From Saccostrea echinata (Eukaryota): a stretch of DNA of 64,000 bases. The notes under the pieces were generated by a model. The model saw nothing but the letters and a program-made list of their open reading frames with translations. It was not told where the DNA came from and searched no databases. Location: the NCBI RefSeq assembly GCF_033153115.1, contig NW_026889782.1, positions 30,814,001 to 30,878,000 on the forward strand, read 5' to 3'. Shown piece by piece: positions 21,602 through 63,279 of the stretch (within the stretch, counting starts at the first letter, position 1; each line of letters opens with the position of its first letter). A program made the position numbers and the translations under genes.

Positions 21602-24600
21602 TCAAATGGAATATCTTCTGACATGTTTCTTTATTTCTTTCAAAATCATTCGATACTTGCGTTTCATCATTCTCTTATCCTTAAAAGAGAAATATCTTTG
21701 AGGGTTTTTGAGTTCCAGTATCATTTGCCTGGTTCTTTTTAAAGCGGATATACCCTCTTTGTCCACCACACAGTTATATTCTCTGTATTTCACCCTCAAA
21801 TTAGCATCTGCCCCAGCCTCCAGTAAAACAGATACCATTTTCTCAGGGCATTTGGTATTACAAAACAAGCTGCCATCAATGAGTCTAAAAAGTAAGGGTT
21901 TGACGTCCGCCTCATTTGATCCTTTGCGAATAAGAATATCTTGGTTAGAATCCAGACCGATGAACAGCAAATGCCTCAACACGTCACAATCTGCTCGACG
22001 TAATTTTATGTACACATTATCTTTTAGATCCCAGACTTTGTTCTTTTTAAACACCACATCATCCTTACTATTTGTAGCCACAACTGCATGCTGAATGTCT
22101 ACAAGGATGTTGAACAAATGCAAATTTACTCTGTTTTGCTGTTGTTTATTTTCGGGCTGTTTTAACAATTTTATTACATTTACCTTGTTTTCAATCAATG
22201 CCATGTACAAGGCGATAGTCCATTTGTTGTACAAATTGTACAATCAGCGCCTCTTTTAATAAGCATTTTTAAAACGGAGATGGATGTTTTATTGCTATCT
22301 ACTGTTTTATACAGTGGTGTCTCCCCTTCTTGATTCTGTAAATTGACGTAAGCACCAGCTTCAAGAACCTCCTTCACTGTATTTGCATTACCCCCTCTGC
22401 ATGCAGCTATCAAAGGTGTATCCCATAAAGTGCTTTGATTGATTTTAGCTCCCATATTTAGAAGTTGTCTTACGATGTCAGTGTATTCACCAGAGCATGC
22501 AGCCGTCAATGGAGTGCTATATTTACCTTGTAAATGGACATCAGCCCCCGCCTCAATCAGCTCCTTGAAAATAACCTTATTTCCACCCTCACACGATACT
22601 ATCAGTGGCATATCATCTTCACGATGTAAATTGACATTGACTTCTGCCTGTAGGAGCTCTTTCACTACATTCAAATGTCCACCCTTACATGCAGCTGTCA
22701 GTGGAGTGCTATATCTACCCTTTAGATTGACATCAGCCCCTCTTTGGAGCAATTCTCTAACCACATCTATATATCCATCGGCGCATGCAGCTACCAAGTA
22801 TATGTTGGTAAACTTTTCCCGAGCACCATGAGATTTGGTGCCGAGCGAAGCGAGGGACCAAATCGAATGGCGAGGGAAAAGTTTAACAACATACTTAGTA
22901 CATGTTTCACACAGAAATTAAACCCTTTGTGTTTCTATCTATTTCATGACAAATTTTTGTGTGTTTCTTGTTATTTAATCAAGATAATGATGATTTGATC
23001 CTGACTGTTGCCATTTTGTACAGGTCCAGATGTGATAATTATACCCTCAGGGGGTATATCTACCTGTCTGCAACAGGTCAGATGACGGTCTATAGTGAGT
23101 AGTTTTCAAACACAATAAGGGTTCATTTCTATAGATTCAAAATCTCTGTATGAAGATATTCATGTCATTTTTAATGGAGTCTTGTGGGCATTAGTAAAGA
23201 TTTGTTTTTAGAGGTAAAATGGATAAATTATTCTTGAAAAGCACATATCTCCACAGAAAACGAAAACAGAAAAAAGGAAAAAAATCTGTATACGGTTGGA
23301 TTGTCTCGGCTTCCAACAATTACAGGGAAAGTTACACACTATTTGAGCAATATAGGACTGGCCTTGTGTATTTGAACATTGTAAAAATAAATCCAATTTT
23401 AACTTCTTGCTGTGTCCTCTTAATCTGTTAATTATAATCGAAGACAAGATGGTGAGTAAACTTTTTTTTGCACTATTTGATGAGATATAATTCTGGGTAT
23501 TATATATATATTCAAACAATTACTAAACCTTTCTTAAAATTCTGTTTTGATTTTGATTTTTTTTTTTAAATTTAATTATTTAATGTTTTAATTTTGACTA
23601 AAGTTGGTTAATTCAGAAAGAAAGACAAGGGGAAAAAAGACCGTTTTTTCCTTTACTAATTATGTAGGTTTTATTGACTATTTAGCACATCAGGTCCAAC
23701 ATTCATTGTTAAGTGACCTTGCCCTGTGTCCATGATTGTAACCTATCATTGATAATGATAAGTTTAATAATTATGCACACAATGGCATAGTCATCCAACC
23801 ATGAAGCTTGGGCTTGGAGTGTACCAAGTGATTTGGTAGCAGCAAAAACCATTTGTTCGAGGTGTGAAACATGTACTAATGGTGTATTACACACACTCTG
23901 TGGATTAACATCTGCTTTTGCATTTAAAAGCTCTTTGACAAGTTCTAAGTATCCACTCTTACAAGCAACTGTCAATGGTGTTTTGTATTTATCCGGTGTC
24001 CATGTATTCCAGGGATTGAAATTGACATTAGTTCCGAACTTTAGCAGTAACTTAACAACATCAAGTCGCCTACATTTACAAGCAATAGTTAATGGCGTCT
24101 TCCATACGAATATTGGATTGACATCAGCCCCCTTTTGGAGCACTTCTTTCACCACAATCAAATTCCCACCAAGACATGCAGCTGTCAATGGTGTTATGTG
24201 CTTCTCCTCTGGTCCTTTCTCAATGAGACTCAAAATTGTGTCTGGATTGTGAAGACTGCAATGAAAGGGTACATTTAATATCAGTTGCAGTGAGCGTTTT
24301 ACATCATCAAACCATACATGCTGTGGATTAACAAAAGCCCCCATTTCAAGAAGCTCTCTCACAAGGCTCAAATCTCCAACTAAACATGCAGCTGCTAGGG
24401 GTGTAAACCATTCTTCATCGTGTTGATTTACAACAGCACCCGCTTCAAGAAGATCTTTTATTAGAGCTTTATCTTGATTTCGAATAATAGAGGCTAGTAA
24501 TGGTGTACTTCCTTCATTATCTTGGTGATTGACATCAGCTTTTGCTTTCAGCAGTTCTTTAATCAATATCAAATTTGCATTACGATTTCTACAGGCATTT

Positions 24601-25411
24601 ATAAGTGGTGTATTGTTGACACCTTGTACCCGGTAGATTGACATCAGCCCCAGCTTTTAGAAGTTCTTTAACCACTTGGAGATGACCACCACTGCATGCA
24701 GCATTCAATGGTGTATCATTAAGACTCTTGGGTTTACCTTTGCTCCTGCCTGTAGCAGCTCCTTCGCTACAATTGTATGTCCACTGCCACACGCAGCTGT
24801 TAAAGCAGTGTTATCTCTACACTGTAAATCAATGTTAGCCCCAGCCTTAAGTACCGTAGGAGCTTCACTATACCCAATTTACCACTTCTACATGCCGAAA
24901 TCATAGGGGTCTCAAAATTTGTTTTTCGGTTGACAATGGCCCCTGATTCCAGCAATCTTTTTGCTACATTTAGATGTCCTTCATTACATGAAGCCGTTAA
25001 TGGTGTATTATGTGCAGACTCTAGATTTACTGAAGCTCCAACATTTAACAGCTCATTGACAATATCTAAATGGCCACCTTTGCATGCTTCTGTAAGTGGT
25101 GTTTCATATTGACCCTCCAAATAACATCTGCACCTTTTTTGCGAAGTTCTTTCACGACACTCAAATGTCCACCATTGCATGCTGCTGTCAGTGGTGTATG
25201 ATCATGACTCTGCATGTTGATATCAGCACCTACCCCGATCAACTCTTTTTCAACAGACACGTGGCCAAATAAACATGCTGCTATTAGTGGTGTATTTCGT
25301 CGACATAAATCTCCCCCAGAAAATCTCACCTTATGAGAGTAGATATGTGGCGTTCTATTAATTGTAAAGTTTAAATCGATATGTTCCAGTAAAATTCTAA
25401 CAGTCTCAACA
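21602..25411 (-). pseudogene. Disrupted ankyrin-repeat and C-terminal part of HEPN-STAND-ANK copy 1
   Basis: ANK (TPLxxAC) fragments in alternating frames, colinear with the intact 944-aa ORF of copy 2; frameshifts at ~25465, ~25120, ~24855, ~24728, ~24625, ~22213 plus a 1082-bp insertion. Confidence 0.85.
22796..23879. mobile_element. Non-autonomous insertion with asymmetric inverted repeats (Crypton/DIRS-like geometry)
   Basis: Splits the TPLVAAC codons; left terminus pairs with ~22867-22896; right terminus gtgtgaaacatgtactaa pairs perfectly with 22895-22912; only 'aa' is shared at the junctions. Confidence 0.75.
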
Positions 25412-50976: not shown

Positions 50977-52834
50977 AAAATACACTTAGCTCCATATTTA
51001 GACAGATATGGACACGTTTTACGGTTTAACAAAGGAGCATTAATTTTATGTGATATTAAATTATCGGCACTGTTTATCAGTCTCAATCATCTTCTCTCAT
51101 AGATCCTTGGTCTTCTATTTTTCAACTTCCAAATTAAAGACCGCAAATGGACATTTACCAGACAAATGACGTCAAAGGTTTAAAAAAAAATGTATGTCAC
51201 TTTTTCTTCCCTGGACTTGAATGATGTTGGAAATTTTGATAATAGAATGAAAAGGTTTATAAAAGTGTTCCATAAATCTGTGAAGAATATCTGAGCATCA
51301 ATCTTCAATAGAACAAAAATGTATTAATTTGACAGAAATAATACAGAATAGATCTCAAGCTTTTGAAGATTTAATTGCATATCAATGACATCAGAATTAC
51401 GCTTGAGTAATACAACAGATTTTGGGTATACATTGAAAGTCAGATGACATAAAGGTTTTTGGATAACATGCAATAAAACAAAAATTAAGCTGGAATACGG
51501 AATAAAATATGCAGTATTGTAAACTATCATTATGGTTTTGGTCTTACAACTATATATTAACAAGAATATCGCACATTTATAAAATGTTCTTTTTTAATGG
51601 AGGAGAATGTCTAGTGAAAAATAGTTTTCTGGAATGTGTGGTAAACATATTAAGGTAATGAAATTAAAAGAAAATATCTGTAAATACTGATTAATTACTG
51701 ATTTGATTACAGGTATAGAGGTATGATACACGAGTGAAAATAAGGAAGTATCTATGTAAGAAATCTCATTTCTTTAGAATAAAATCTTTTAAAAAAAAAT
51801 ACATTGCTTGAAAATTACTATTGAAAACATCTATCATATAAATTATCTGTATTAAATTCAAAATGAAGATAAATACAATAAAATTTTACTTTTTTTTTTT
51901 TACTGATTTATCAATGAACTTTTTTTTTTATTAAAGACAGTCTTTTACCTTATTTTCTCTTTACCTGTATAATTAAAGAGATCTTATTTTTTTCGACTTT
52001 TATTATGCTTTTCATGCTGTACACCTCTTCTAAAACACACTTTGATTAAAAAAAAAAAGTTTAAATCTGTATGTTTTGCATTTTTTTTTTTTTTTTTTTT
52101 TTGTATATTTTTCATAATCAACTGAAGGACTTTCTTCATTTGATATTTATTTAAAACTGCTCGTAATGTTTACCGATTTTTTTTATCAATGAATATCTAA
52201 TAATACTATGATTATAGATAAAGAATATCTTTAAAATCATCAGGCTAAGGTATGTTGTAAAGTACCTGATTATGACGTAAATTAAAGTTTACATTTAAAA
52301 TTGCTCATTAGGATCATGCTGCTTTAGCACCTTCATTCATTTATTTAATAAAATTGAATTTAACTCCATAATAATGTGTTGGAGAGGGGGAGGGTTTTAA
52401 CTAAAAGCTAACTTAATTTAACTACATAATAATATGTTGGAGAGGGGTTAACTAAGTATAAAGTAAACAGGATTGCTCGTTTTGGTTTCTGTATCGACGA
52501 AAACGTAGATTGAAGCAAAGCTATCTGACACACAAAATGAAGTATCTGTTATTTTCATATTTTCCTTTCCATATCAACAGGTTGGATTTCTTCTGAGCAG
52601 TAATATTCGTTATCTTCACATTTTATTTTGTATAAAACTATGTAGATTGTATGGATATATATTAAAATTAAAAACTTTAGATTTTTAAATCCTTCACAAA
52701 TTGTCTTTTGTGTACATTAGTCGTGAAGCAGAATGAATCTCAAGGAGGAAAGCAAATTCGGATTGTCAATTATTTCAGTTTACCAAAAGCACAGATTTGC
52801 TGGTTAGGCAATTTTGAAGAGTAATTTTCTCCAA

Positions 52835-53139
52835 TCAGAAACACAGATTTTTGCAGGCTATCACCCGTTGGACCCTTCTTATACAGTTACTAAGACAATC
52901 TGTCATTGGTCGGCGGCTCCTGACGAAATGATGACGTTTCGTTACGTCCTTGGCTTCTACTGGCTTCAAATCGACGTTATTTCCAAACAAAAAGTTTAAA
53001 AAGTTTGTCATTTTATGATAGTACGGTACAACTGCACCGTCATGTACAACATCCAGAATATCAAGAATGTTCATTTCGCTGTTTGCCTTTGATTCTGTAT
53101 GTCCAGCCTGTCTAAAAGTGTTCTCAGATTTCCCAATGC
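52835..53139 (-). CDS. Secreted prepropeptide exon 2: propeptide, KR and RSRR cleavage sites, 4-Cys mature peptide
   Basis: aatatttcag acceptor at 53140; open frame ending RSRR-PMTDCLSNCIRRVQRVIACKNLCF*; phase matches the signal-peptide exon. Confidence 0.75.
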
Positions 53140-56100
53140 CTGAAATATTAAAGAATAAATTGTTTGAAAAGGTCTCAAAACACATAATGAATCTTCGTTT
53201 CACTCATTTAATGGAAATGTGAAGATAATGAACAGCATCTTGCTCAAATCAAACAATACAAATTGAGAGCAAAGGAAACATAGACCTCTGAAAACAAAGG
53301 TAGGATCAGGTGCCATTGAGGAGTAAGTAGCCTTATCGACCCATCACACACAGCTTGTGCTCTATTTCATGAACGGGTAGACGGAAAAAAGAATAAAAAT
53401 AATGGCCTAACAATTATGATTTAATTTTCAAATATTTTGTTTTTGTAGTGAGTGTTTACCGTTTAATGATCACCGTTTAACTACTAATTATGTAATGTAC
53501 ATAAAGATTTCTGAAATGTTAATTAGTGAATTTGCCAAATTACGTATGACTTACATTCTGTACCAAATTTTGAGAAAGATTAAATGGTAAAACATGAGCA
53601 TTTTAATTATTCCAGACCAATATAGAATGGAATTACCAGGCCTTAATACTATAATTTAAGGATAGACTAAAATCAAAAATTAGTACTTGAATATCTTGAT
53701 GTGTAACTAAAAAGATGTTGAAAAGTTCGCAAGTGGGTATAATTATCATATTCAAATAAAAATCATGATGAAAATTTCGTTTTATTTTCATTAGTTAAGT
53801 CTGTTTATGGTACATGTATATGGATCAGCTTTTTAGAGATGGAGCATGTGTGATGATTATCTTCATATGCAAACAGACCATGAAGATATAAATACATTGG
53901 GTGTGGTGTTCCTTGAGAACAACATAAGGTCACGATCGAATGATTTTCAGAAGTATTCCTGGTAATTTTAACAAATTCATATGCTTTATTTCAAACCTCC
54001 CTTCATTTCTTATTTTGATTTATTTTTTAATTAACTATTTAATGTAGTTCAGGTATCTATTAAATGTCTTGAGAGAAAAATATAAGGAAGAAAACTGTGC
54101 AATTTCATATTTCTTAGTATTTTATCACTAAGAAATGGCTTTGTGATTAAAAACTTTTTCAAAATGTTTATTGAGCCGTTAGCAAAAAGCCATATCAGAT
54201 AACAGCGGATGATTTTCTTTCATACACTGTTTAATGAATTAACTCGATGAAACCTTAAATGATTCAAAGACTAATGTATCGTTAAATGGTTACAAATTAC
54301 GCTCGATAGTTACACGAACAGCCCCAAGCTGACCTCAGAGTCTGAGAGTCACAAGAAATTGATATTGATCACGTGATGACTCCTAATTACGTGATTAAGA
54401 TTGTGGACAATAAGAAGTAAAACAGCCATGATATAGGATATTTATAAAATTTAATCACAAGGCATTTTTCACATGTTTTTGACTCTTTCTGTTTTCTTTT
54501 AACTGTCTGTTTGTCTCTGTTTATCCACTAATTAACACTTTCCTGATTAGGTGTATGAAATTGATTTTCGTGCAAAATGTACTTGGTTACTTGAATGTTT
54601 AAAGCTTTTATTTCCGCCATTAATATTCTCACGTCCATTCATTATTTGAGGATTTGCTCCTTGTTAAAATTTGGTCAGTATTTTCCAGCAATCAATACCA
54701 AAGGACTATAAAATAACTGAAATCAAACATCTATTTCGGTGGGGGTTTTTGAAGGGGAGGGGGCTTGTGTTTTTTTAGTATGCTATGATTTAAAGAAACA
54801 TTTAAATTAATTGATTGTATGAGGTGACAATTGACATAGGATCAAATGATAATTATTATAAGCTGCACACCCGCTGCATAATTAAGATTTCAAGTCTAGA
54901 TAAATTCAACTTCCAGACTTATTGACTATAATGAAATTAATACTGTAGAAAGTGGACACACAGATGAATTTCTACTTAAAAATAGAAAGTTTTTGAATTT
55001 ACTGGGTGGAGGCAAATACCTAATGTACAACACAATATACATCAGATTTTGAGATGTTATTCTTAGAAAACAAATTGTGATAGGCCAAAAGCAGGTTTAA
55101 TTGAATGTCGCTAAAGACAGCTCATTTTTGGGGTGTTTGTTGTTTGAAACATTTCACAAATTCTGTGGTCTTTTCCAAAAAATGACATTTTGTAGATCGA
55201 CTAATGTATTAATACAAATTTGGGTCTACAGTTTTCTTCTGGCACATCTGATGTTTTAAAGGTCCGTGTTTGCTCTGCTCTGTTGTTTAATTAGACTTCT
55301 GAGCGTGATTACTTTTCGTAATTTTCACATTTGATCAGGAGAGTTATAAGTGTATCTGTATTTTAACTATTTTTATAGAAGATTTAAAAAAAAAAAAGAA
55401 GAGATTTCTGTTTTTTCTGTATAGGTTCACACAGTAGAAGATTTATTTACATTTCGAACGCACACTTTAAGGATATAAATAACAAATGTGGCCGTTTATT
55501 ACATTGAAACAAACTTCTACTTAAAACAGACAGCCCATATATTTTTCGTCTATTTAAAAATTAAGCGTTGAAGGCGAGACGCCATGTCCATTGACACTCG
55601 AGTGATTTACTACTGTTTTACACCAAACGACGCGGCCATTTTCCAATCTCAATGGCTGACTCTGTGACGTAGCTACCCCATTTGTATCATATTAGGGCCA
55701 TTCTGCGTTTGAAATTATCAAATGTCAATTTGTCATTAACAAACATCTAGAGTATGTCGAATAAAAGTTTTCTTGGTCAGATTGAATATTAAGCATTTAA
55801 TCACGGAGCTGTATCTAACGAGGCCATTGGGTGCAACTTCCTTTAGTAAAATGTGTTAACTGATTAATAAGGATTTATTTCTATGTTGGACATATTTTCA
55901 TCTTTGTCAATTTTAAGGAGGGCGTACTTCCGTTAGCAAAGAAATAAAATGTATTTAAGATTACATGGAACCTAAAATTATATCCTTTGAAATCGAGCAT
56001 TTAAAAACAGTTTATAGTTTACGTGTACCTGCATGAATCTGAATCTCTTTTAGTATTCAGTGACTTCTTAACACTTGTTATGTTAATAGCTATGAAAGAG

Positions 56101-56589
56101 GGTTTTTGCCTTTAATGATTTTTAATGTTTATATCGAAACATCATTAATTCTTATCTTTCTGTCATTTGAAGCATGATTTCATTTCCTAATTGAAACTAA
56201 TGCAAAACATAACCACTTCAAATCATTCTTGCTCATCACTTTTAAGGAAAACACAGAAGGGCTTTGTTTTTAAGAAAGATATAATTTTTTAAGTAATGAA
56301 AAAAAGGGAAAAATAACGAACAGAAATTGACCTCATAAATCCAGTAAAACGTACAAATCGTGAACATGGAAAACAGGGACCCCTGAAAACACTAAAAGTG
56401 GGGTCAGATGCAACCCTGTCGAAAGGTCACAAGTTATAATATTACTTGAAATAACAATGACTTTGCCTGATATATATAAGACGTGGATAATGTAATTTAA
56501 TTAACTAAGTTATACTCCTTGACGAAAATAAATCGTAGCGAAGGCAATAAGAAGTGAGGCAGAGGAGGTATATTACAAGAAGATCTTAG

Positions 56590-57930
56590 GACAAAATACT
56601 TCAAAATAATGTCAGTTTTTCAATATTTTTAATTTCATCAAAAAGAAAACGGAATTGGAATTACCGTAACTTAGCATACTGGATTTCTAAACTTTATAAA
56701 AATCCTTTCAAAAAAGATTATCTACCAAGCTCTTTCTGTACTCCTCACGAAAATATTAACAGCAGTAAAGGAGAAATTTCAGGAGTACTGTATAACAACA
56801 ATGTCGAGAAGTGGATTTAATCAGATTCCTAGGAACTTTCAGTAAATTTGAAGTCACAAAATTTTACCAAAATTAACAATTTATACAGCTATTTTTCACA
56901 TTAAAATAAGACCAAACTTTATGATATCATTGACAACTATTTCTTTAATGAAAATGGAAAACGTAAGTTTGCATACTTTATCATTGGTCATCTGCAGACT
57001 TATTTTGATTAAAAAACATTTTGATTCTACACTCAGGTAGTACGAGGTTGATATTAATAGATGCTTGAGTTTCTCATTGGCAATATCAATGTATTTTTCG
57101 CAACCAGATCTTTAAACAGTCTGTTTTAAATTCCAATGAGTACCAATTGCGCCCCGTTATTAGCAAACTGTTTTTGCATTCATATGAAGCAGAATTCATT
57201 CAAAAAATTCTACATGAAAAAAAAAGTCTCTTGATGTGGCCTTCAAATCGACATTTATCTATATCGCCGACGTTTAAGAAACAATAATCAGTTTCATTCA
57301 TACGTTGATTCGATATATCCCAATTAACTCGAAATTCAAGACACAGAGTCTAACGCATCTGTTTCATATTTGAATATTTTACTAGAAAAAGACATTCTAA
57401 ACATGACAACTAAATTTTATGATAAACGTGATGACTTCAACCTTCTATCCTTAACTTGTCCTATTTATATAGCAAGATACCACTTTTATTTGCATATGAA
57501 ATTTATTTCTCCCGGTTGATACGATACGCAAGAGCAAATTCTACATACAATGTCTAAAACGAAACAGGCTATTGACAAAAGGTTGATGATAATCTAATTA
57601 AGAGTCAACATTTTGCAAATTCTATGGTCGACACAATGACTTTGTTTGTAAATACAATCTGTCGGTGGGTCAAATTTTGACTAACATCTTTCATACAAAT
57701 TGTTAACGATATTTCATTATTTTCACACTAAACTATCTGCGGATTTTTTCGTTTACCCGATCGTGACAGGGAACACACGGTGGGTGTGACCGTTCGGCAG
57801 GGGATGTTTACTCCTCCATGGCACATGATCCCACCTCAGTTCAGAGGTCCGTGTTGTTTCTGTTCCTAATTTCCATTGTTTAAATGGACTTTTGATTGAG
57901 AATTTTATTGTTAGTCATATTCACATTTCA
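56590..57930 (+). mobile_element. Decayed Penelope-like retroelement: RT + 3' end, in the peptide-gene intron
   Basis: Remnants of YWIxKLxKNP, IPMxTNCAPLLA, SYEAEFIQK, YIxDV, FYDKRDDFN, FYGR followed by the 3' UTR block; no downstream GIY-YIG seen. Confidence 0.8.
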
Positions 57931-58261
57931 TATCTATTTATTCCAACAGCTTAAGAATAGATAGGAATATGAAATATGGGAGATTTTGTTTTTCTTTAAA
58001 TGGAAACGACCGGAAAACGTTACCCTCAAATGAGTATAATTTTATCTGTGCGACTTCTAATGTTATAAGTAGAACATACCATACACAAAGTCGAAAGCAT
58101 ATCATGAAAGAATCAACTTTTCTTCCTCATTTTCATATACTAATTTATTTTTACAAATACACTTGTTAACTAAATAGCATTTTCTTACTAGAAAAAGAAC
58201 TAGTTTTTGTTTAGGAAGTGAACAAAAATAATTAATGCTCACAATTTAATAAACGCCATAT

Positions 58262-58407
58262 ATCCGGTCGGCAGGGGATGCTCACTCCTCCATGGCACCT
58301 GATCCCACCTCTGATGTTTGGAGAACCTTGTTTGCTCTGCTCCTATTTTGTATTGTTTAATGGACTTTTGAGCTTGAATACTGTTCGTTATCTCCATATA
58401 TTTCATA
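58262..58407 (+). mobile_element. Penelope-like 3'-end fragment (more at ~11420-11600, 34283-34421, 38910-39070, 46620-46710, 53210-53420, 55240-55335, 56310-56430)
   Basis: Shared block ggcaggggatgctcactcctccatggcacctgatcccacctctg...tgttcgttatctccatat in either orientation. Confidence 0.75.
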
Positions 58408-60024
58408 TCATATCTTTTACAAAGCACAGAATTTTGTAAAGTTTTTTAAGTACATGAAATAGTAACATTTCTTTTTTGAAGGTTGCAGTAAATCCACCTT
58501 CACCCAAGATATTCTGTATTACTAATAATATTATATTATTAATAAAAGAAAGGCTGCATTACTTTAAACCATCATCAGAAAATGATGGAGGCACATGGAA
58601 TCTGGCTTTAATTGATACAGAGAGTAGAAGTATTTCCTCTTTGCAAGGTTTTTGCTATTTCATGCCCTGATTATATATTACAGATAATTAATCTGTGACT
58701 GTTTGGTTTGAGTAATACTTGGCGATAATGCAATCCAAACATTAAATGAGGTTCAGGTTAAAATATGGAGGACAATGGAAGAAATTGGTACCTAGATTTC
58801 CTCATTTACAAGAAATTCGTGTTGGTATTAATAATTGGCTAGCATTTTATAGATTTGAAAAGTTTGAAATAAATACGACAGTTTTTACTTTTAATATCAC
58901 GTCTTATTTATTTGCTTTTTTACTTCCAATATAGATATTAATTAGTTAAGAATATTTACATTTTTATAACCTGCAATACTATGATCTACAATCAAAGCAC
59001 AGAATGATTATAATGATACTTTACATTTCATTTCACAGAGTATTGTTTTAAAGAATATTTTTTTCGTGTGATCATAATAAGGATATTGTTTAATTATTCA
59101 TGAAATCTTTAAATAGCTTTACAGACAGACAAACACGGAAAACGATGAACAGAAAAACAGAAGATGGACAAACATTGTCCTAGGTACCTCCTGATTAATT
59201 CATTAAAATCGATTTCATTGTTTTATCTTTCTTTGTTTGCTTGCTTGCTTGATTTTTTTAATCAATCTTTTCAGAAATACATTTATATATTCTTTGGCCA
59301 ATTATTTCATTTATTTATTTATTTATTTGTGTTGATTGATTTATTATTCCTATGAATGATTTCTCTGACCAAATTTAAAAGCATGTGTTATTCCTGTCTC
59401 TTATGTCTAATATATCATGTTTTATTACGAAGCGAAAACTTGCATAGAAATGCTTCAAATATACAATATTATAAATTTTCAGTGACATACATGTATTTTA
59501 AGCATTCAGTTTATTTGATGATAGGTTACTAATATATAGACAAATAGAAATGATGAATGTAAAAAAGAAACAAAATGTTTACGAATTCCGTTAAAGTTTT
59601 AGGAGAAGGGTATGCATCCTTTACACAATGGCTTACAAGGTATGATAACTTTTGTAAAACCTTAATAACATTTAACATTTTAAGTCCAGAAAAATCAACA
59701 ACGTTTTCCGTATATCTCAACTATTTCGGGCATTGATCCGACAGAGGATTCAAAACTTCTTGGAGATCAGTCTCCTAAACTGTAGGGTTAAAAATTGTTT
59801 GCCAAAAGTAATTGTACTCAGTTTGTATTAATGGTGCACTCAATGTGTATTAATGTAGATTTTAAAAAAAAGAAACATATTTTTTCCTTTTTTTAGTACA
59901 TTCATTATCAAAGTTGCTACTATCGCAAATCTTTTTATATCCCGTTTGAGGAATTGGTTATAACCTGTTCAACATAATTACTAATTAATGAAGAAGATAA
60001 TTAAAATGATATAGAGTGTCTTAC

Positions 60025-60076
60025 CTGACTGATATAACAGTGACAGTACCAGACATAACATCATTCCCAATCTCAT
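60025..60076 (-). CDS. Secreted prepropeptide exon 1: signal peptide MRLGMMLCLVLSLLYQS(G)
   Basis: ATG + basic residue + hydrophobic core; consensus CAG|gtaaga donor, phase 1. Confidence 0.72.
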
Positions 60077-60504
60077 ATTCCTCCGTAATTCCTGTCAAAA
60101 CAGTCCTGTTCCTTAAAGTCCAGAAAGATACGGAATTCGTAACGTGTTTGGTTCTATATCTTAGTCTTATCCACTGATGTGCTCTGTTCTTGGAGCATAA
60201 TGTCTTAAAGTCAGATTAATTTAATTTAAGAATTCTTATTTTCTTATTAATCAAATATTTTTGCAGAACCTGGCACGGTTACCTCGGGAATCTAAGGTTT
60301 GATAGAAAATGATAGTCTTTCTTAGAGTAGATGTATGACTGGTGTAGAAATAACAAATTGCCTTGAAACAGTCGTCCTTTTAAGTAATATAGATGGCTTA
60401 ATCAAACATTACTTGGTATTAAACGCCAAGATATCATTTTACAGAAAACACTTGCTAAACGACATAGATCTCAATATTGCATTAATTACTAGCTAGGACA
60501 TCTA

Positions 60505-60548
60505 TATTTATAAACAAGGTCTCCTTCGCTAGTGTAGTGTGACGTCAC
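60505..60548 (-). promoter_or_regulatory. TATA box + full CRE upstream of the peptide gene
   Basis: TATAAATA on - at 60505-60512; palindromic gTGACGTCAc at 60539-60548. Confidence 0.55.
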
Positions 60549-61630: not shown

Positions 61631-62588
61631 TATGCAGGAAATTATGAAGGTACTTTTATCAGATTGTACTTTTGTAACATTTTTGTTGTTCATATTGGAC
61701 TTAAAATTTGTGTGCATACAGATACTTATCATTGTTTTTAAACAGACCTTATGAAACTTGAATTTAAATGTCATTAAGTCCATTTTTGAACGACGTCATT
61801 ACGTAAAGAGTAGCCGCGCTGACTAATTAAATTATCAGAAGATGAAAGCCCAACTCACACGACTCTTATTAACACTTTCTTAATTGGAGGATTAAAGTAG
61901 TCATATTAACGACTGATTTACGATGTGTTGTTTCCCATTTACACTTCACATCACATCCATTTTTATACCAAACTAATATGGCAGACACGCTAATGAATGG
62001 GAAAATGACGTGCAACTTTTATAGTCCCGGAAAGGGTCAAACGCACGTAATATTTATTAAGGATGTATTTTTTTTATTATTATTATAATTTGAAGCATGT
62101 CAATATTCACATTTAATGCAATGAGAGCTAATTGATTTTTTATCTGAAGTCTCGTAGTAAGCATGGTAATTAATAGCAGTCAGAAGGAATATCACGTGAC
62201 ACCAGAGTAGTCGGCGGTTTTCGGTCTAATGAATAAACAAAGTTCAACGCTGGGTCAAACGTTCTTAAAGAAATCTATATCCTTAATTTTCTCCTATTAT
62301 TATTCACAATTGGCCTTTTACTATAGAAAATGTTGTTTAGTATAACATTGATAGAAAAGATGCTGGAGAAAAGTATTTTTATAAATAAAATTGAAATAAA
62401 TGAACAAAAATATTAAGACAGACGTTAAGAGTTGTTGTAGAGAAAAATAATGATATTTTGTTGAAACGAAGTTCGAGTCAATCTTCATGTTTTATTAACT
62501 TGTTGAATGCTTTATTGAATATTTTATCGTGTACTTTAATGTACTTGTATATTCTTTAACTTATTGAATACATATTTTATACTTTATT

Positions 62589-63221
62589 GTGAAATATGGA
62601 GATAACGAACAGTGTTCAAGCTCAAAGTCCATTAAAACAATACAAATCGGGAGCAGAGCAAACACAGACCTCCAAAAAAAGAGGTGGGATCAGGCGCCAT
62701 GGAGAAGTGAGCATCCCCTGCCGACCGGTTACACCCGCCGTGTGCTCCTTGTCATGACGGTAAATAACGAAAACATCCGTCGACAATTCGGTGTGTAAAT
62801 AATGGCCTAACAATTCGTATGAAAAACCTCAGTCAGCATATGACTTAATGATAGATTGTATTTGCTGACAAGGTCATTGTATTGACAATAGAACTTACGA
62901 AATGATGACCTAAAACGAGACTCTTGATATGCTCTACGTATGTACAATTTCTAAAACGAGGTAAATTATTGACAAACAAGTTGATGAAACAAGAATATCA
63001 GCATTCTCGTTTAAAGTCATCATTTCGTAAGTTCTATGGTCGATACAATGACCTTGTCAGCAAATACAATTTATCATTGAGTCAAATGCTGACTGACTTT
63101 TTTCATACTAATTGTTAGGCCATTATTTACAAACTGAATTGTCCACGGATTTTACCGTTATTTCCCGATCATGACAAGGACTTTTGAGCTTGAATACTGT
63201 TCGTTATCTCCATATATTTCA
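62589..63221. mobile_element. Penelope-like insertion with inverted duplicate 3' ends
   Basis: 62745-62923 is the reverse complement of ~63004-63180; the right arm encodes the RT C-terminus RLKSSFRKFYGRYNDLV...*. Confidence 0.8.
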
Positions 63222-63279
63222 TTCTTGTTTCAACAACTTGTTTGTCAATAACTTACATCGTTTTAGAAATTGTTCATAC

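Follow-up and report, generated by a model that had tools for sequence, protein, structure and literature searches.

A gene for a small secreted four-cysteine peptide in the oyster Saccostrea echinata, probably of an undescribed signalling family

In this work, we describe a gene of Saccostrea echinata that encodes a small secreted, cysteine-bridged peptide and lies in a stretch of 64,000 nucleotides (contig NW_026889782.1, positions 30,814,001 to 30,878,000 of the forward strand), hereafter the window. Judging from the sequence and its comparison with relatives, the gene is real and its product represents an undescribed secreted peptide family, probably with a signalling role. We consider that it is best explained as the prepropeptide of a signalling peptide that the oyster secretes, either a neuropeptide or a hormone, a reading to which we assign a probability of about 0.6. 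A fixed mature peptide is carried here by a drifting propeptide, a pattern more in keeping with a receptor ligand than with an antimicrobial peptide.

The gene lies on the minus strand throughout, and coordinates are positions of the window. Coding exon 1 (60025..60076) runs from the ATG at 60076 over 17 codons plus one base, corresponding to the n- and h-regions of a signal peptide, up to the donor CAG/GTAAGA after 60025. A phase-1 GT-AG intron of 6885 nt (53140..60024) ends with the acceptor tttcAG at 53141-53140, which is preceded by a pyrimidine tract, and exon 2 (53139-52835) completes a Gly codon and adds 100 residues before the TGA stop at 52837-52835, giving a product of 17+1+100 = 118 aa. 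Both coding exons and their junction were read from the sequence at the positions claimed in the original prediction, which had been made from this stretch alone. The motif C-x3-C-x9-C-x3-C was also where it had been claimed to be, and it has no other match in a six-frame scan of the 64 kb, even with the spacer relaxed to 7-13 residues.

It is very improbable that the reading frame or its splice is a chance construct. Such a construct would agree with the lack of a tblastn match for exon 1, an exon too short for detection that way, but not with the orthologues that exon 2 retrieved (3/3 candidates matched at E-values of 7e-18 to 9e-14), nor with the existence of full-length annotated proteins with signal peptides. 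Moreover, the stretch from the acceptor to the end of the window offers 62 ATG...GT phase-1 candidates, of which the proposed exon 1 ranked best, being top for hydrophobicity combined with a good donor and also in similarity to the signal peptides of three relatives (43 versus 29 for the next best).

We found orthologues in Ostrea edulis (LOC130049805 = XP_056003803.1, 122 aa) and Crassostrea virginica (LOC144623477 = XP_078328025.1, 142 aa), both annotated as 'uncharacterized' and both with a signal-like N-terminus. The gene had been presented as hidden, which is true in that no identical protein stood among the 3 database candidates, but not in that orthologues are annotated in other oysters. 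Five matches at E<=0.001, two of them of a divergent type B, came from an unindexed search among 1.84 billion representatives; a profile search gave 11 matches in 929 candidates, every one of type A or B, and a region search with type B returned type B in 8/8 candidates and nothing else. Pfam gave no family for exon 2 at E<=10 and none for three full-length relatives at E<=0.01. In the ESM Atlas the top feature score was 0.82, which makes it no more than a lead; rows resembling precursors, urotensin-2 for example, reached 0.75, and there was no usable match for the C-terminal 34 residues.

The core and the propeptide show very different degrees of conservation. Among three type A relatives, identity to the window core was 23/24 in O. 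edulis and 24/24 in both C. virginica and a JGI record, compared with 14/66, 8/66 and 14/66, respectively, for the propeptide. The propeptides of the window and C. virginica are no more alike than shuffled sequences, 80/500 shuffles reaching their score. Two propeptide groups could be recognized, one formed by the window, O. edulis and the JGI record and the other by C. virginica and type B: no shuffle in 500 reached the score within groups, against 56-287/500 between them, and type B clustered with C. virginica at scores of 76-81 (0/500 shuffles). The core would so have been held constant while the propeptides turned unalignable, 11 of its sites being altered later on the type B branch, either by speciation or by duplication. 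The claim of a secreted precursor with a conserved C-terminal four-cysteine peptide was therefore borne out by the orthologue alignment, and the lack of conservation of the Cys pattern and cleavage sites that the original prediction had named as evidence against itself was not seen, since both are conserved in relatives.

Type B comprises two propeptide subtypes (46/59 identical; proteins P0015 and P0033) with near-identical cores, and these subtypes were found only in Logan records, in up to 94 contigs. In type B, the point at which spliced forms (P0015 and kin) part from read-through forms (P0019, P0039, P0047) lies immediately ahead of the same Gly, at the signal peptide's end; this suggests that the intron position is shared and that a relative makes a spliced transcript. 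The N-terminus of P0015 is signal-like. Other database forms extend past the terminal Cys-Phe (P0002, P0016 and others) and were set aside as probable read-through of the stop by the gene caller, and P0023, which carries an unrelated downstream frame, was left out of alignment A3.

The signal peptide is indicated by the hydrophobic exon 1 and the signal-like N-termini of the orthologues, both the peptide and its cleavage being judged by eye and hydropathy. The first part of exon 2 (52940..53139) appears to hold its c-region and then the fast-evolving propeptide. It is followed by an invariant Lys-Arg, the putative convertase site at which we prefer to place the N-terminal cut (52934..52939), by a conserved basic octapeptide made of a hexapeptide plus RR and containing R-x-R-R (52910..52933), which may form the N-terminal tail of a 32-mer or offer another cleavage site, and by the 24-residue core (52838..52909), which ends in a free Phe. 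This arrangement of KR, a 5-6-residue segment, RR and core was present in 72/76 stored proteins, KR and R-x-R-R being found in 72/72 of those that bear the motif. The inter-site segment is conserved at 3-4/6 positions and the block from KR to RR is 7-8/10 identical.

The 24-residue product of a cut at RSRR had been proposed in the original prediction, and we regard this cleavage as doubtful. Convertases cut poorly before Pro or an aliphatic residue (the P1' rule), and RR is followed by Pro in 14 of the 72 relatives and by Leu in the other 58, as well as by Pro in the window gene, with a conserved KR 8 residues ahead of the end of RSRR. Since KR is followed by His (Gln in type B) and the segment between the two sites is itself conserved, a 32-mer released by the KR cut is favoured over other lengths, at about even odds; the invariant R-x-R-R is an argument for the shorter product, so that the 24-mer is retained as a tentative second choice and an Arg-extended 25-mer as a further alternative. 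The computed masses are 3853.9 Da for the 32-mer with two disulfides and 2778.3 Da for the 24-mer, with net charges of +6 and +3, respectively, and a hydrophobic moment of 0.48. An N-terminal Gln, as in type B, is often cyclised in neuropeptides to a protective pyroglutamate (PMC6402141).

As a signalling precursor, the protein would lose its signal peptide after Gly20 (G-I-G), and a convertase of the PC1/PC2 type would then cut after Lys-Arg to release the 32-residue peptide (or, alternatively, a trimmed 24- or 25-mer). The four cysteines would pair as two disulfides, in the simplest case 1-4/2-3, and thereby close a helical hairpin, and neurosecretory or gland cells would release the product, whose binding to a dedicated receptor would keep the core constant. 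This layout agrees with criteria I, III, IV and V for new signalling peptides in section 3.1 of Koch et al. (PMC10501145), and three features expected of peptide-hormone precursors were seen: a signal peptide, flanking basic sites and a mature region far more conserved than the spacer. That the window has one copy of the gene also speaks for this reading.

A number of observations weigh against this proposal. No C-terminal amidation Gly is present before the stop, and for the P1' rule behind the 32-mer a literature search gave no citation. Relatives were found only in oyster or oyster-like records, a distribution that differs from that of most molluscan neuropeptides, in searches that are weak for a 24-residue motif, and the peptide motifs were not found in an oyster visceral-ganglion neuropeptide supplement (PMC8398477). 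The constraint on the core is not uniform, as the type B core is identical to that of the window at 13/24 positions (propeptide 8/66). AlphaFold2 did not yield a hairpin. Finally, the cAMP response element (CRE) octamer TGACGTCA, which is part of the candidate promoter, is common in the window, with 6 copies versus 0.46 expected (~13-fold).

The same precursor could instead supply a cationic antimicrobial or immune effector acting like an alpha-hairpinin, an option also raised in the original prediction. The charges and hydrophobic moment given above would suit such a role, as would the agreement with the alpha-hairpinin motif CX3CX4-20CX3C and the presence of HEPN-nSTAND3-ankyrin genes nearby. 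However, a gene neighbourhood is not evidence of function, the Cys pattern alone can neither classify such peptides nor predict their structure (PMC7191063), and the window contains a single copy of the core. A near-invariant core on a variable propeptide, with which this option fits poorly, is the reverse of mussel MgCRP-I, whose pre-pro region is conserved and whose mature peptide is hypervariable (PMC4558851). We hold an antimicrobial role to be improbable. Hardly better placed is a water-borne or gonadal cue, such as a spawning pheromone or gamete factor, with a signal that changed lineage-specifically in type B. A disulfide-stabilised peptide may well suit release into water, and type B, which groups with C. 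virginica by its propeptide and yet has 11/24 core changes, looks like the result of a burst on one branch; type B may also be a paralogue, though, and a core that is invariant between the window, O. edulis and C. virginica speaks against recognition specific to a species. A signalling peptide with a dedicated receptor is the reading that we prefer.

Regarding the fold, the helix-loop-helix of the original prediction agrees with the Cys spacing shared with such folds, but not with the single helix of AlphaFold2 or with a spacer that has no turn residue. One continuous helix was drawn in both models, which were shallow (1 or 7 input sequences) and had no control; it spans residues 10-31 of 32 and 12-33 of 34, with a mean predicted local distance difference test score (pLDDT) of 77 and predicted template modelling scores (pTM) of 0.36-0.38. 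A long amphipathic helix joined to another copy of itself by four disulfides between the chains would agree with these models. On such a helix all four cysteines point to one face, at 60-140 degrees, next to a stripe of hydrophobic residues that types A and B both retain, and Gly, Pro, Asn and Asp are all missing from the 9-residue spacers IRRVQRVIA and YRRMQSLIK, in contrast to scorpion kappa-KTx-like central loops, 5/5 of which show at least one Gly, Asn or Asp by eye (PMC11722136, Table 1). Nevertheless, AlphaFold2 tends to draw short peptides as one helix from 1 or 7 sequences, and pairing inside one chain is the simplest way to satisfy four cysteines; in plants, scorpions and cone snails, peptides of the CX3C-Xn-CX3C type are described as intrachain 1-4/2-3 alpha/alpha hairpins. 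As the models are shallow, weak and without a control, we keep the hairpin as the likelier fold, with fairly good confidence, and regard the helical dimer, which would leave the signalling role unaffected, as an unlikely but serious rival. Foldseek with the helix model (0 matches) and VIA-align (best Z 3.5, 0/48161 at Z>=5, generic helices) were uninformative on the fold, and a homodimer prediction made without an alignment scored 0.07 against a mark of 0.32, which is evidence neither way.

A special case of the signalling reading is that the peptide is the oyster member of an unnamed endogenous molluscan family mimicked by the R-superfamily conotoxins vil14a and as14a and by the teretoxin Tan14.1. 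The lead given in the original prediction is a legitimate one: section 2.6.3 of PMC13311285 reports a likeness of R-superfamily toxins to an uncharacterized protein of Lottia and to sequences from molluscs without venom, and adds that these toxins probably mimic a still-unrecognised endogenous molluscan peptide. The C-C-C-C framework (XIV) is shared by the oyster peptide and vil14a; the same framework is described as common to many unrelated superfamilies. The fold described for vil14a is CS-alpha/alpha, with disulfides connected I-IV, II-III, and this toxin is reported to be a very weak K+ channel blocker. Searches of PDB sequences gave 2, 0, 1 and 1 rows, all at chance level, with no framework-XIV chain at E<=10, HMMER filters being prone to lose weak short matches, and no gastropod relative appeared in sequence and profile searches. 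The outer loops of vil14a have 3 residues as in the oyster, the residues adjacent to its cysteines are similar and its C-terminus is aromatic, but its central loop has two more residues and is rich in Gly. Taken together, it is possible, though the odds are against it, that vil14a and its kin mimic this family, and we give the same tentative standing to its fuller form, a bivalve version of the peptide ancestral to R-superfamily and terebrid toxins, acting as a 32-mer and retuned as a ligand in one oyster lineage (11/24). A bolder structural version would make this ligand a helical dimer hormone with four disulfides.

The ends of the gene offer candidate elements. An acceptor-like AG at 60093-60092 (ttttgacAG), 15 nt ahead of the ATG, suggests a further non-coding upstream exon with a 15-nt stretch of putative 5' untranslated region (60077..60091), so that the term two-exon used for this gene would hold for its coding part only. 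A perfect CRE palindrome, a weak signal alone, occurs at 60540..60547 with a TATA-like box downstream of it at 60505..60512, both on the minus strand, as candidate promoter element and candidate core promoter. Pairs of the form CRE-N15-45-TATAWAW had 2 matches in the window versus 0.01 expected, and we take the upstream pair, which counts in favour of the signalling reading, as a lead toward a promoter only. The second pair lies at 37851-37898 on the plus strand, between two HEPN-NTPase-ankyrin genes, and an alternative TATA-like box (62023) with CRE-like words farther upstream (61798-62023, minus strand) could be another promoter. At the other end, the first AATAAA 3' of the stop (52622..52627, minus strand), a candidate polyadenylation signal, shares 3 kb with 11 further copies of this hexamer (12 in all).

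The intron had been described as rich in transposable elements, of which the short repeats stand and the richness is not established, as a second copy within the window exists for 1041 of its 6885 bases. Open reading frames of the intron do not exceed 84 codons. Short interspersed repeats of one family, 70-90% identical, occur in the intron, upstream region and elsewhere, with copies at 53207-53389, 55243-55332, 57546-57946, 58261-58422 and 62583-63222, and also at 46617, 39048, 34287 and 30743. At 588-3437 the translations repeat themselves in several frames, which suggests an array of tandem repeats. On the minus strand, two tandem genes, at 39637-46525 and 21602-30188, encode DZIP3-like HEPN, nSTAND3 NTPase and ankyrin-repeat domains; both are broken over several frames, the downstream copy more so, suggesting introns and frameshifts.

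The peptide motifs and accessions were not found in 8.1 million open PMC texts and 0.36 million bioRxiv texts, and no relative was present in the searched parts of the molluscan secretome supplement of PMC6425005. This precursor seems to be missing from the oyster neuropeptide catalogues on which studies of spawning, growth and settlement draw, and its product, at 24-32 residues, can be directly synthesised. Should it be the endogenous counterpart of the R-superfamily, it would address the point raised in section 2.6.3 of PMC13311285, help to explain the weak K+ channel block by vil14a, and provide a non-venomous aquaculture model for finding the receptor that is the true target of the toxins. 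A burst of changes on one branch of an otherwise fixed ligand would also be a natural case of ligand-receptor coevolution.

Among known families, the original prediction had suggested kinship to molluscan 'hairpin' signalling peptides. The Hairpin DREPs and contryphan-Vc1 (Koch et al. 2023) are also molluscan secreted orphan peptides and share the name, but they are disulfide-directed beta-hairpins with a single disulfide, and four invariant cysteines together with a helical prediction led us to reject this identity. CCWamide and agatoxin-like precursors have a signal exon, a non-conserved propeptide and a C-terminal Cys-rich orphan peptide, as here, but were rejected for their eight cysteines, amidated aromatic end and three exons, against four cysteines and no Gly before the stop; CLCCY-like peptides differ in Cys number. 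Plant alpha-hairpinins (EcAMP1, MBP-1, MiAMP2) have the pattern CX3CX4-20CX3C in vicilin-linked or multi-module precursors of highly variable sequence, of which the single-module oyster gene is not a member. Scorpion kappa-KTx precursors are built of signal, propeptide, basic site and peptide, with 3-9-3 spacing in 3/5 of them (PMC11722136, Table 1), and differ in their Gly/Asn/Asp central loops, short propeptides and venom origin; PDB sequence searches with the short oyster query gave no kappa-KTx match, and convergence is the simpler reading of the likeness. R-superfamily/framework XIV toxins (vil14a, as14a, flf14a-c) and Tan14.1 are likewise molluscan, with four separated cysteines and a short C-terminal product, and gave no detectable match in the PDB sequence searches with the peptide of the oyster, a non-venomous host in which the core is conserved rather than diversifying. 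With the O. edulis and C. virginica orthologues, from which it differs by diverged propeptides, the window gene shares the signal peptide, the KR and R-x-R-R sites, the core (23/24 and 24/24) and the stop after Cys-Phe.

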